In this document: piece by piece, positions 5,110 through 64,000 of the stretch
Layout of the letters: each line of letters opens with the position of its first letter
How positions within the stretch are numbered: position 1 is the stretch's first letter
From: Octopus sinensis
Taxonomy: Eukaryota
Direction of reading: 5' to 3'
NCBI RefSeq assembly: GCF_006345805.1
Contig: NW_021836139.1
Span: 62,001-126,000 of the forward strand
DNA length: 64,000 nucleotides
The notes under the pieces: model-generated
Seen by the model: the letters and a program-made list of their open reading frames with translations, nothing else
Databases searched by the model: none
What the model was told of the DNA's origin: nothing
Position numbers and translations under genes: made by a program

Positions 5110-5303
5110 GACCTTGTGTGTACCGTTGGCAATTTTTTTTCCTCTGTCTTCCCTTCTCTGGATCTTTCCTTCTCCTAAGTTTCCGACAAAGAGCTCCGCT
5201 CGAAACATTAAAACCCTCCTTCTTTCCTGAGCGTCCAATAATACTATATTTGTTCCATGTCCTCGCGTTGTGTTTTTTTGTGCTTTCTTGTTTGGATTAA
5301 CTT
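5110..5303 (+). mobile_element. Short (TA)n-inserted repeat family B with decayed hammerhead motif
   Basis: Homologous to 28390-28585, 35627-35782 and 37740-37935. GTTT-CCGACAA-A-GAGC-TCC-GCTC-GAAAC-ATT-AAAAC at 5179-5214. Confidence 0.75.
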
Positions 5304-6124
5304 TACATATATATGTGTGTGTGTGTATGTATGTATTCATATCACTTATATGAGATGGTTTTTAGATAAGCACTGTCAATTTTTACAATTTTGTAAATAA
5401 TGATAATAGTAATTAATAAACTTAATTACGTTGCATCTTGTACTCTGACTTTGTCACTAGGCACCTTTTATCAGCTTTATAATCCATATAAGGTAAATAG
5501 TAATCACCAAAGAACTACATAAATTCATTTCCAGAGAAAAGGAGTTGACTTTCTTACAACCACTCTCCATTCTGCTTCACCGAAGTTATTTGCAAAAGAG
5601 GCCCACGAGTGGCTACTTCATGAATTCCTATTGGCATTCACTTTTAACTTATGAAATGTAGAAATATTTTTCCTGAATCTACTTGGTGAATTCATTACAG
5701 CATAGGATTTTCAGTAGGTAAAAAATAGCTGATGAGAAAGAACACTGCAGAGTTACGAAGTATCTTAAAAGTTTCATGATATGCTTTCGGTGCTGTTTAT
5801 TCCATTCCTCTCATTCACGGACATAATTATTGCAACATACTGGAGTTGTAGTAGTCATCTTATCAGAATTTCTCCCTTATTTTGATATGGGCCCACATGT
5901 ATTGGATACAATGATTGATAAAATTCTAATGATCGATTATCATCTCCTCTTATGTTATCTGTACAAGCCTTGTCTATGCTAGAGGTTAAGAAACTGTTTT
6001 TATCATTACCATTTTTATTTCACTGCTTTATTATATATATATATATATATATACATGCATAAATATAAAAGCGGGAGTGAGAGGGAAACAGAGACAGAGC
6101 TATAGAGACAGACAGCTATGTATA

Positions 6125-6686
6125 TAGATAGGTAGATGATTGATTGATAGATAGATAGATAGATAGATAGATAGATAGATAGATAGATAGATAGATAGAT
6201 AGATAGAGATAGATAGATAGATAGATAGATAGATAGATAGATAGATAGATAGAGATAGATAGATAGATAGATAGATAGATAGATAGATAGATATAGATAG
6301 ATAGATAATAGATAGATAGATAGATAGATAGATAGATAGATAGATAGATAGATAGATAGATAGATAGATGGATAGATAGATAGAGATAGATAGATAGATA
6401 GATAGATAGATAGATAGATAGATAGATAGATAGATAGATAGATAGGTAGATAGGTAGATAGATAGATATGTTTCTTTATTAGCCACACAGGGCTGCACAC
6501 AGATGGGACAGATTGCAAAGAAGAGCTTTTCATTTTGGGGAGAAAAAAAACAGATAGGTAGATAGATAGGTAGATAGATAGATAGATAGATAGATAGATA
6601 GATAGGTAGGTAGATAGGTAGGTAGGTAGGTAGGTAGGTAGGTAGGTAGGTAGGTAGGTAGGCAGGTAGGTAGGTAGGTAGGTAGA
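6125..6686. repeat. (GATA)n/(GGTA)n microsatellite block
   Basis: Direct reading; source of the IYLS-repeat ORFs. Confidence 0.95.
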
Positions 6687-8429
6687 ATTTGAGGAAACTG
6701 TTGGTGGTCTACATCATCAAAATTTGTATTTATTAGATATGTAATTTGGAGTGGAAAATTCCAACATTTTAGTCATAAGTCCTTCATTGGGGTACAGGAT
6801 AGATTAAATAGAAAAGAAATGGTTGCAGGACGTTTCAGAGGGTTGTGGGGTTATTGAGGAGGATGTAATCAGAGAAAAAGAGATAAGAGATGTCAGAGAA
6901 AGTAAGAATATCTGCTTGGTTGAAGTAGGGAGACAGAACAGAAAATTCTTGTTGTAATGATGTGGTGGTGGTGGTGGAGGTTAAAGCAGGAAAGAATGGT
7001 TGTAAGAAGGAAGAGAGAAAGGAATGGCGGTAAGAAGAAAGAGAGAAAGGAATGGTTGAATAAAAGAACAAAGTAAACAGGAAAACTTACAGAAAGATTA
7101 ACAGCAAATTGAAGTAGTCCCAACTTAGATCATAAATCATATTTAGTCAAAGCTCGGCTGGGTTAACCTGGGGCTAAAAAACAACAACATTCGTGAAGAA
7201 CCAGCTACGAGTTTCTAAATTAAATTTAAAAACATTTAATCAAATTCTTGCTAAGGATATCTTATCATGCCAACAACCAAATCATAATGCTAGCAGAATA
7301 ACTATTTTAACAATAAAATTTCAATTACAAGGACTATTTTCTTCTTTTACGTTATTTTTTCCTTCTTAAATCTTTCATAAATTTTGTTTCTTACATTTAT
7401 TTTTGTTTATATTTTATTTATTTTTTCTGTTGAGACTTCTTTTTGTCAATTATTTATTCTCTTTCTTTTTTTTTTCTTTCTTTCATCTTGTTTTTTTTTT
7501 TTTTTTTTTTTATTATAATCTTTCCCTTTATTGTTCTTATCTTTATACAATAAATATCATATTGGTGATAATTTGTCATCTGCATAATCCACTTGTCGTC
7601 TACAAGTGTATTAACTTGAAGTCTGTTTTCAAAATGTATCTACTATGAAATTAGTATCTAAAAGCAAAAAAAAAAAAAAAAAAAAAGAAAAATGAAAAAA
7701 AAAAGCACAGAAACAAAACTAGAAAATGAAATAAAAGGAAACGGAAGTATAGTGACAAAAATGGAAGGCGATTAATTCAAATGTAATTATATTGGCTTGA
7801 ATAGAATTTCTATTGGAAAATATTTTAAAAGATAAAGCAAACAACAACAAATATAATATCAATCAAATCAAAGAATGTTTAATTTTTTTTCCTTCTCTAA
7901 CAGATGTCAATGACATTGATGATGATTATGATGATGATGATGATGATAATGATAATGATGATGATGACAGTGATCATGACAAAGATGATGATGATGGTGT
8001 TATTGGTGGTAACGGCATTGGTGATGGCATTGGTGATGGTGTAGATTAAACTGATAATATTGATGGTGAAAATATGTGAACGAAGATGAAAGTATTAAAG
8101 AAAATGATAATGATAATGATGATGATGATCATCATCATCATCATCGTGAATATGATGATGGAAGAGGAGGATGACAATGTAAAAGTTGTATGGCAACAGC
8201 TGAGAAGATTATTATAGGGTGGCAAAGAGACAAAATGTTTAATAATATGACAAAATAATATGCCATAAACATTCGGATTATGATATTGTATCAATTATTT
8301 AACAACGCACTTTATCTCATTGCGTATAAACACTTTCATATATAAGTAAATCAGTTGCTTGAAAGACGATGCAAAGAGAACCTCTTCCTTTTAAATTGTG
8401 AATTCATTTATTATTAGTCTATATTACTC

Positions 8430-8834
8430 CATGAGCATGATCGTTGCCAGAGCAACAAGCTGGCCTCCATGCCGGTGGCACGTAAAAAACACCATTCGAG
8501 TATGATCGTTACCATACTGGCACTTGTGCTGGTGGCACGTGAAAAAAAATTTGAGCAAGGTTGTTGCCAGTGTTATTGGAATGGCTCCTGTGCAGGTGGC
8601 ACATAAAAAGCAGTATTTGAGCATGGCCATTGCCAGCACCATCTGACTGGCCCTCATGCCGGTGGCACATAAAAGCACTCACTACACTCTTGGAGTGGTT
8701 GGTGTTAGGAAGGGCATCCAGCTGGAGAAACTCTGCCAGATCTGATTGAAGCCTGGTGCAGCCATCTGGTTCACCGGACCTCAGTTAAATCGTCCAACCC
8801 ATGCTAGAATGGAAAGCAGACGTTAAACGATGAT
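8430..8834 (+). mobile_element. RTE-tailed family 2 element with four internal ~60-bp subrepeats
   Basis: Repeated RTGCNGGTGGCACRTAAAAAGCAC motif at ~8469, 8526, 8590 and 8656; tail GACGTTAAACGATGAT. Confidence 0.85.
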
Positions 8835-8835
8835 C

Positions 8836-9065
8836 CTGAAGGAGCATAGGGCTGGTTTCTCAGTTATCCTGGTGTATATATTTCTCCCTTGATGGGATGC
8901 CAGTCCAGCACAAGATCACAAATTTTTATCAGCTGAGTGGACTGGAGCAACATGAAAAGAAATGTTTTTACTCAAGAGCACGACACATCACTCAGTTCAG
9001 GAATCGAAACCATGATTTAATGATTATGAATCCAGCACCCTAACAACTATGCCATGAACCTCCAC
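8836..9065 (-). mobile_element. Decayed tRNA-derived SINE (family 5)
   Basis: Minus-strand head with B-box-like TTTCGATTCC; homologous to 14110-14350. Confidence 0.7.
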
Positions 9066-62289: not shown

Positions 62290-62560
62290 GCTATCATCAA
62301 ATACACATCTTACTAAAGATATCCTGGTTAATATTTCCACTGATATGCTGGATCGTAATACGGAACAGCTCATCTTTGTTATCTTTACGTAAAAGAATAT
62401 TGGCAAACTTCTTTCCAATTGTCTCTTTGCTGGCGTCTGGCTTCTCTTCAATGTGTTGGATACTTTTCTGTCTTCTCCAGCCTTTTTCGCCTTCCACTTA
62501 TACAATCAGGTCTCTTTCTTTTTTTGGTTGTATTCAATTTGTACAAGTAAAATCCTCTAA
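62290..62560 (-). pseudogene. Fragment of an uncharacterised transposon-associated protein
   Basis: RKVSNT...NILLRKDNKDELF resembles a recalled RRKV...W.NFL....NK.ELF motif of invertebrate TE proteins. Confidence 0.3.
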
Positions 62561-62721
62561 GAAGCATGTGGTGGATATATAAATTGCTTGACACAAGCAA
62601 CATTGGAATAATTCTTTCGGTAGCACAAGGAGTTGTCACACCCAGTGACTGTTGCAATATAAATTAACTGTTACTAGAGCAAAAGAAATGTTTTGACTTC
62701 AGGGCCATCAAATCACAGGAC

Positions 62722-63082
62722 TCTCTTTACTCTTTTACTCTTTTACTTGTTTCAGTCATTTGACTGCGGCCATGCTGGAGCACCGCCTTTAGTCGAGCAA
62801 ATCGACCCCGGGACTTATTCTTTGTAAGCCCAGTACTATCGGTCTCTTTTGCCGAAACGCTAAGTTACGGGGACTTAAACACACCAGCATCGGTTGTCAA
62901 GCAATGCTTGGGGGACAAACACAAACACACACACACACACATATATATATATACGACAGGCTTCTTTCAGTTTCCGTCTACCAAATCCACTCACAAGGCT
63001 TTGGTCGGCCCGGGGCTATAGCAGAAGACACTTGCCCAAGATGCCACGCAGTGGGACTGAACCCGGAACCATGTGGTTGGTT
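62722..63082 (-). mobile_element. SINE family 1, 5'-clipped
   Basis: Consensus match. Confidence 0.9.
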
Positions 63083-63621
63083 AAAACAGAAAATTATAGT
63101 GCGACTGGATTACATTCATTCGCACGTCCTATAGTCTAGGAAAAGCTAAGAAAGCCTGATTTAGATGAACGAATGGTTTATGTGAGTCATGCTAACCCTG
63201 TACAGGGATTCCATTTGCAAGATGATTATAACTGAGTTATAATCAAGACCCAGTTCTCTGTCCCACTTGTAGATTATAGTTCTGAAGGGAGTTTAAGAGC
63301 TCACAAATGAATGCTTTTCCCTGCCATCAGGGAATTGTCTATGCTCAAATCGGAGAAAAGTAGTTGATCAGAGCAATTCACAATATACCAAAAGTAAAAT
63401 TATGGATACACAAGAGATGCAGTAGATCACAAGCGGGTTGTCAGGAAAATAAATATTTGTATTTAGCAGATGCACAGGAGAGGTTTGATGAAGCAGCATC
63501 AATGAAATAGATCTTTTCAACTGGTGTAAGTGTTCTCTCGAAGTAGTTGATAGCATCTATTACTTTGGTGACTAGATAGAAATGGAGGTAGTTTCTTTTT
63601 TGATATCATAGAAGGTAAAAT

Positions 63622-63881
63622 TCTGTTGTGTCTGGGGAGAGTCAATTTCTTTTTGTGCCTTATAATGTAACACACTCACCGGTACGGTAAAACTTCCATT
63701 TATTTCTTATTATTATTTTCCTAAAATTTTCGTTGCGTCTTGCAACCTTTTCAATAGTAAGTGTATTAAATTATAAGGCACAAAAAGAAAATGACTCCCC
63801 CCTCCGCCCCCAGACACAACAGAATATGCTTCAACACACGAACTCACATAAAGAATCTTGCAAACCAAATCCAAAAACGAA
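63622..63881 (+). mobile_element. Family C insertion with inverted 5' part and 12-bp TSD
   Basis: AGAAGGTAAAAT at 63610-63621 and 63882-63893; hammerhead-like motif at 63721-63757 (-). Confidence 0.8.
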
Positions 63882-64000
63882 AGAAGGTAAAATGTTATTA
63901 CTTCTATTGGCAACAAAGGGATTTTTCTCTTTGAGTGGAAGGTACGAAGGCACAACATGGATAGTGATTGCATAGGATTTATGGATTTTGAAAAAGATAA

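Follow-up and report, generated by a model that had tools for sequence, protein, structure and literature searches.

A stretch of 64,000 nucleotides from the Octopus sinensis genome (assembly GCF_006345805.1, contig NW_021836139.1, positions 62,001 to 126,000 of the forward strand), here called the window, contains a cluster of hammerhead ribozyme motifs with altered catalytic cores and raises the question of whether these belong to small RNAs without an open reading frame (ORF) or to larger retroelements. Ten type I hammerhead sites are present in five families (A four times, B and C twice each, E and H once), and each is homologous to a hammerhead-bearing repeat family. The explanation that accounts best for them, and that we consider likely, is that nine are the 3' ends of four protein-coding Penelope-like elements (PLEs) left as 5'-truncated stubs, that the tenth lies in a non-coding retrozyme-like repeat, and that the variant cores, on which only weak demands are made, have been fixed family by family. 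The architectural part of this explanation is very probable; that the fixed variant cores retain some residual cleavage seems, judging from sequence, somewhat more plausible than its absence. The variant cores are traits of families and not the decay of individual copies. The features that carry the argument are as follows.

5108..5295 (+): family A stub (PLE 3' end) with a decayed C4 hammerhead at 5179-5213, core CCGACAA
26085..26557 (-): family H unit of about 340 nt (339-nt period), retrozyme-like, in 1.4 head-to-tail copies that give a direct repeat of 134 nt (87% identity)
26241..26310 (-): type I hammerhead of family H, its helix I long and bulged, with a U3-A8 core at 26290, a 4-bp stem II and a palindromic stem III; the window copy has mismatches
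28395..28585 (+): family A stub carrying a C4 hammerhead (28455-28489) in which stem I has one mismatch
29860..29990 (-): 3' end of family E, lying inverted before a reverse transcriptase (RT) fragment, with a decayed hammerhead at 29921-29951
30021..30172 (+): PLE RT fragment of the family E lineage, relatives about 45-60% identical to the family C RT
30171..30448 (+): GIY-YIG endonuclease end of a family B element, one internal stop (PF01541, E 9e-5)
30449..31468 (+): family B 3' untranslated region (UTR), microsatellite-rich, and tail, containing a U3-A8 minimal hammerhead (31279-31315)
35625..35784 (-): family A stub whose C4 minimal hammerhead (35716-35750) is intact, with 4 bp in each of stems I and II, an extra A following A9 and the palindrome ACGU
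37800..37875 (-): heavily decayed family A remnant, 79% identical
39480..39885 (-): family C 3' end, in which the sense hammerhead (39540-39576) has lost 1 nt of its core
40236..41446 (-): family C coding region in two frames, 5'-truncated RT, CX4CX2C linker and GIY-YIG (PF01541, E 5e-5)
41447..41851 (+): the 3' end of family C again, inverted at the 5' break and 98% identical; the U3-A8 minimal hammerhead that it carries (41754-41791) is intact and has the palindrome ACCGGU
63620..63882 (-): rearranged family B stub whose U3-A8 minimal hammerhead (63721-63757, palindrome AAUU) is intact

Number and density of hammerhead sites

The window consists of AT-rich, microsatellite-dense animal DNA on a small contig of a 2.72-Gb assembly. 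Sites were located by loose scans, which returned more than 150 lines, then by self-BLAST and later by a census of each family; general type I/II/III scans with a hairpin stem III gave chance-like matches only. Expressed as the position of core nucleotide N3, the sites lie at 5183 (+), 28459 (+), 35746 (-) and 37870 (-) in family A, 26290 (-) in H, 29948 (-) in E, 31282 (+) and 63754 (-) in B, and 39573 (-) and 41757 (+) in C. Three to four of the ten copies are intact (35746, 41757 and 63754, with 31282 added under a looser rule), the rest being recognised through their families. No hammerhead occurs among the 150 matches listed, of 245, that Rfam gives for the window, nor among its 64 matches in six family loci.

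A strict minimal-hammerhead descriptor (stem I of at least 3 bp, Watson-Crick N3-N8, stem II of at least 3 bp and a palindromic stem III) finds three sites in the window compared with a mean of 0.14 (maximum 1) across 100 block-wise dinucleotide shuffles. Applied to a 1.2-Mb genome sample composed of 120 ten-kb stretches at round coordinates of large contigs, it finds 13 sites compared with 0, 1, 6, 2 and 2 in five shuffles. An earlier sequence-only reading of the window had described about ten hammerhead-like folds from four or five families, a count largely borne out here, and had made an excess of the relaxed motif over dinucleotide-shuffled sequence its test; with the strict descriptor an excess is observed. 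The high density it stressed is also seen, with ten sites compared with about 2.6 expected from the 120 sampled stretches (resampling P = 0.003), but this figure is inflated, the window itself having served to define families A, B, C, E and H. Its remark that no fold carries the textbook CUGANGA core holds for the window, where the core is found at 0 of 10 sites (CCGACGA or CCGACAA in A, UUGAAAA in B, C and H, and UUGACGA in E), and does not extend to the lineage; the lack of textbook cores is local, since textbook families make up 17 of 45 copies in the genome sample.

Every stretch of the window that was searched has copies 99-100% identical on a second contig (G000:C12609), probably an uncollapsed assembly duplicate, and this near-identical copy of the region was excluded from every count. 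A look-alike at 46777 (-) was rejected as a hammerhead, with G5 present in 0 of 19 other aligned copies, the stems absent and no RT or endonuclease nearby. The family to which it belongs, D (window 46700-46950 and upstream), is an old repeat whose copies are 75-79% identical and share about 1 kb without a coding match, and its 3' end resembles a decayed hammerhead.

Coding partners of the hammerhead families

Families A, B, C and E all display the type I topology composed of stem I, core, stem II, GAAA, palindromic stem III and UH. The RT/GIY-YIG gene lies upstream of the hammerhead in the window copy of family C, where the motif is about 95 nt from the element terminus, and relatives match this copy up to the 1.7-kb flank limit. 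The family B hammerhead is placed 0.55-0.9 kb downstream of the endonuclease on the same strand in 11 of 18 other loci retrieved with the window endonuclease gene, five of the 11 falling in two near-duplicate sets to leave about eight independent. An endonuclease is found at most 0.6 kb upstream on the same strand in 8 of 18 family E loci, and a search with the upstream UTR of a long family A copy reaches the same GIY-YIG gene on the same strand within the flank in 3 of 25 loci. The hammerheads of the coding families are about 90-190 nt from the element 3' end, and the copies mostly end in TA or other simple repeats, often with an inverted piece of the 3' end placed at the 5' end. Direct repeats of 347 bp, 90% identical, flank the family C element of the window (38846-39186 and 42116-42460).

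A CX2-5CxxC linker (CSRSRCNTC in A, CTNDNCMVC in B and CGRPNCGIC in C) together with a C-terminal GIY-YIG is present in families A, B, C and G. The association with Neptune-type RT/GIY-YIG proteins proposed from the sequence alone is supported as to a PLE with this linker, a motif common to Neptune and Nematis, and the window PLEs are of the one type or the other. The endonucleases of A, B and C are just 24-27% identical to each other, and in a tree built from this genome's sequences alone, with a midpoint root for drawing only, A, B/G and C/E form three deep lineages. U3-A8 occurs in two of these, G3-C8 beside B and U6 beside A. The recurrence of U3-A8 cores that had been noted at the outset is found across distant lineages (B; C and E2; H).

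Cores fixed within families

Core counts for each family refer to rows fetched from the genome by similarity to the window copies. The core UUGAAAA is present in 48 of 56 family B copies and 32 of 34 family C copies, U3-A8 in all 15 copies of family H, and UUGAUGA (U3.G8) in 18 of 21 copies of family E, in which stem II has 2 bp and stem I is weak. Family A has C4 in 55 of 68 rows, U4 in 11 and a gap in two, and U4 contributes 17-24% of the summed depth in contigs of four runs with four organism codes. Divergence is 0.088 for the U4 copies compared with 0.035 for the C4 copies, and C4 is the derived majority state of the family because the U4 copies are older. Decay of single copies as the source of C4 was rejected, since C4 is family-wide.

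Family H, a unit without an ORF

The longest open frame in the family H unit is 57 aa, the folding z of the unit is -3.7, and copies start at many points round it, with wrap-round in several loci. The hammerhead alignment has 92% of its cells paired, compared with 31-42% in slid controls, and in seven pairs both partners have changed, a level reached by 1 of 500 shuffles; since the copies are related, such covariation counts cannot be read as probabilities. Every one of the four bases occurs at N7. In its bulge and in the sequence of loop II the motif seems to resemble classical animal type I hammerheads. No RT or endonuclease was found within 1.5 kb upstream in 14 family H loci (12 of the 46 family H matches fetched), and the 46 matches include one same-strand pair, 232 nt apart. 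On its sequence the family fits a retrozyme of the non-LTR type (one lacking long terminal repeats), except for long arrays and circular RNA, and it is likely copied by PLE enzymes. The ORF-less mobilised units of the sequence-only reading are therefore represented by family H alone, the other nine sites being truncated 3' ends of coding elements.

Families outside the window

The 1.2-Mb sample contains 48 copies (F 12, As 12, G 6, A 5, I 5, B 4, N 3, one related to H, and C and E none), 15 of them with a literal CUGANGA; none of F, G, I and As occurs in the window. Candidate family N (three matches) was dropped because only two dissimilar rows aligned, which leaves 45 copies, 17 in the families with a textbook core (F, textbook in 16 of 18 rows, and I, in 3 of 4) and 28 in families with a fixed non-textbook core (C4, U3-A8, G3-C8 or U6).

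In family G (L179:7994-8045, L312-L330) the hammerhead has a 7-bp stem I and, in 23 of 28 copies, G3-C8 as its core pair; it stands at the 3' end of a PLE akin to family B, and two loci have an endonuclease upstream of it. Family As, a sister of A, has U6 in 22 of 22 copies (L158:6280-6320 (-), L265:4420-4460 and 20 more rows); an endonuclease is again upstream in two loci, the one in L158 being 57% identical to that of family A. Position N7 of As is U in 10 copies and C, A and G in four each, and H17 is A in 14, U in six, C in two and G in none. Such variation at N7 and H17 with U6 fixed suggests a selected hammerhead in which a usually essential base has been changed.

Family F (L255:5510-5800, L333-L355, L163, L178) is composed of a tRNA-like head, in which motifs resembling A and B boxes can be made out by eye, an AAT run and a textbook minimal hammerhead with a tail, and has PLE-style inverted arms. 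The head is present in 12 of 20 copies that were not selected for it, ARAGORN and Rfam give no match to it, and a linked endonuclease is found in 0 of 25 loci selected for the head. From this layout family F is a candidate short interspersed nuclear element (SINE) mobilised by a Penelope-like element. Three single, well-formed hammerhead candidates have no homologues in the fetched DNA: one at L093:2790-2830 with an A3-U8 plus C4 core, one at L067:2955-3020 with a textbook core and an 8-nt palindrome, and one at L305:780-830 with a U3-A8 core. The singletons M, J and K likewise lacked homologues in the sample.

Comparison with published elements

The window is not a new system, because the overall arrangement is already known. 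The minimal hammerheads of PLEs, with U3-A8, an extra base after A9, dispersed solo copies, a palindromic stem III and low dimeric activity, were described by Cervera & De la Pena 2014 (PMC4209133); the supplement gives a U3-A8 PLE example that reads UUGAAAAA, about 1,300 U3-A8 beside about 2,000 standard minimal motifs in Schistosoma mansoni, and a U3.G8 example in Saccoglossus. The octopus motifs share with these the type I layout, the short helix I, the extra base between 9 and 10.1, G10.1-C11.1, the palindromic stem III, the position in the PLE terminal repeat (pLTR), the mostly solo copies, the inverted pairs and the many families per genome. Compared with CUGANGA or the published U3-A8, families B and C are U3-A8, E is U3.G8 with one published example, and A is C4 in the majority of rows given above. 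In a difference from the 2014 paper, C4, G3-C8 and U6 are here the majority cores of families with, by extrapolation, thousands of copies. The supplement file as searched has no octopus entry and no CCGA core, and the part of its alignment examined has no G3-C8 or U6 core. Whether the variants were already catalogued, a point on which the sequence-only reading had made its claim of novelty depend, is thus answered in two ways, with U3-A8, the extra base after A9 and solo copies in print since 2014, and C4, G3-C8 and U6 not found in the portions of that source examined.

The animal non-LTR retrozymes are tandem units of 150-450 bp, with mussel units of 350-390 bp (Cervera & De la Pena 2020, PMC7229834), and have been proposed as PLE derivatives (PMC7229834; Li, Clavereau & Pollet 2026, bioRxiv 10.64898/2026.07.22.740005); the available portions of these two papers do not mention octopus. 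Family H is like them in its ORF-less unit of about 340 nt, the head-to-tail order of its 1.4 copies in the window, low GC, high degree of structure and type I hammerhead with a long helix I, and unlike them in its U3-A8 core and in occurring not as arrays but as inserts of a partial to 1.4 units, often with inverted arms. The PLEs of the window have in common with the endonuclease-bearing Neptune and Nematis elements (Craig et al. 2021, PMC8557442) the C-terminal GIY-YIG, the CX2-5CxxC linker, 5' truncation, inverted 5' arms and insertion at TA repeats.

U3-A8 and U4C are natural core variants known to be partly active, and for A6C a low activity has been described (Perreault et al. 2011, PMC3088659); U4C of a viroid "considerably decreases activity in vitro" (Ambros & Flores 1998, via PMC3088659). 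These are rare single cases in phages and viroids, in contrast with the variants fixed here in high-copy families of animal retroelements. It is still debated what makes PLEs retain a ribozyme of so little activity (PMC8557442, PMC11167929), and the octopus genome brings together within a single host a natural series of core mutations (textbook, U3-A8, U3.G8, G3-C8, C4 and U6) with known coding partner lineages except for F, I and H. Searches for CUGANGA only undercount animal hammerheads. The parts that stand out are the core variants that many high-copy families have fixed, family H with its likeness to retrozymes and family F with its likeness to SINEs, and the part that looks new is the family-wide C4 here and the G3-C8 and U6 elsewhere in the genome, which seem unreported. 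In the literature search, neither these families nor PLEs with C4, natural G3-C8 or U6 turned up; the reportedly large survey of PLE hammerhead variants by Lunse et al. 2017 and Repbase/Dfam lay outside it, and either could remove the novelty.

Proposed mechanism and alternative explanations

Published PLE biochemistry suggests a course of events in which the endonuclease would nick AT-rich DNA and the RT, working on RNA that is mostly uncut, would begin at a set internal position downstream of the ribozyme and stop early; nearly every stub would keep its hammerhead because of this order. Another PLE has been characterized with an internal RT start, AT-rich targets, unprocessed RNA as the main template and a protein-assisted ribozyme (PMC11167929). 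The ribozymes are predicted to cleave slowly and only as dimers formed via the palindromic stem III, probably with the help of an element protein. Low demand on cleavage could therefore have let half-active cores (U3-A8, C4, U3.G8, G3-C8 and U6) become fixed one family at a time, beside CUGANGA families. Copies that start exactly at the predicted cut are rare (1 of 73 in A, 0 of 63 in B, 0 of 37 in C with one a base off, 0 of 30 in G and 0 of 16 in H) and 5 of 53 family F copies start within 5 nt of it, in counts biased by the choice of loci that cover the motif. This rarity is consistent with unprocessed RNA as the main template.

Several results weigh against the explanation by truncated PLE ends and a retrozyme-like repeat. 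The family A loci that extend to an endonuclease gene within the flank are just the 3 of 25 given above. In family B, 35 of 52 copies start no more than 21 nt before the core, most often at -13, -11 and -9, near a small hairpin, a sharper distribution than random truncation would give, and a short RNA could be copied on its own. Family H was found only as partial to 1.4-unit inserts, with no array of two full units in the short flanks fetched and no autonomous partner carrying the family H tail, and its double-sided stem changes are counted among related copies. A 339-nt back-joint is present in contigs of all four runs examined but shows the repeat period only, not a circle, because it is also present in the large run X16 of unrecorded kind; no cleavage, transcript end or circular RNA was observed in the assembled contigs of these runs, which are not on record as RNA.

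The alternative that survives best, although it appears unlikely, regards the variant cores (above all C4, U3.G8 and U6) as inactivating mutations that hitch-hike in master elements for which cleavage is dispensable. The unimpaired insertion in vitro of a PLE with ribozyme mutants (PMC11167929) and the success of Naiad PLEs that lack canonical hammerheads (PMC8557442) agree with such relics, as do the considerable loss of in vitro activity with U4C, the low activity of an A6 change (PMC3088659) and the greater age of the U4 copies in family A from which C4 is derived. The changes at positions 3 and 8 are compensatory (U-A, G-C), however, the stem changes of family H are double-sided, and family As retains U6 in every copy while N7 is free and H17 is never G, which is the pattern expected of a selected hammerhead.

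The sequence-only reading had gone further and proposed a lineage-level system, in which most sites would be dedicated small ORF-less ribozyme RNAs with specially evolved cores and their own transcription, mobilised in trans by Neptune-type proteins. Family H, which is ORF-less and circularly permuted, the tRNA-like head of family F with no linked endonuclease in 25 loci, the sharp 5' end of family B copies and the 28 of 45 sampled copies in families with a non-textbook core are all features that such a system would have. It is nevertheless improbable, as A, B, C and E run upstream into coding elements and the 5' ends of family A are dispersed from -150 to -2; a separate short subfamily of B was not found, short and long copies differing at no position but one weak one, and F, the family that looks most like a SINE, is textbook in the core of 16 of 18 rows. 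U3-A8 beside standard minimal motifs is, moreover, already on record from Schistosoma (PMC4209133). Matches that a loose motif would find by chance in DNA rich in AT and microsatellites, suggested by the long output of the loose scans, the private look-alike at 46777 and the up to six strict matches in shuffled genome samples, account for 46777 alone and can be dismissed for A, B, C, E and H, where the strict descriptor exceeds its shuffled mean and the motifs are conserved over tens of copies per family at PLE 3' ends.

A more far-reaching reading is offered tentatively and is itself doubtful, namely that Penelope hammerheads have escaped the "invariant" core, with five substitutions (U3-A8, U3.G8, G3-C8, C4 and U6) each fixed in a high-copy family and still cleaving thanks to an element protein, and with the same proteins carrying at least two types of passenger RNA, the U3-A8 retrozyme circle H and F, a tRNA-headed SINE with a hammerhead tail. 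If this were true, standard descriptors would miss most hammerheads in such genomes.

Other repeats in the window

A very abundant repeat of about 420 bp with a tRNA-like head and a central microsatellite, in which no hammerhead was seen, is present at 4258-4675, 11000-11476, 15156-15559, 20317-20725, 32344-32763, 45822-46334, 58086-58552 and 62720-63096, together with partial copies. A second repeat, with a B-box-like motif, lies at 54633-55055 (+) and 60065-60487 (-), and its 184-bp body is tandemly duplicated in both places. A 17-bp minisatellite occupies 12559-12876 with 19 copies and 96% matches.

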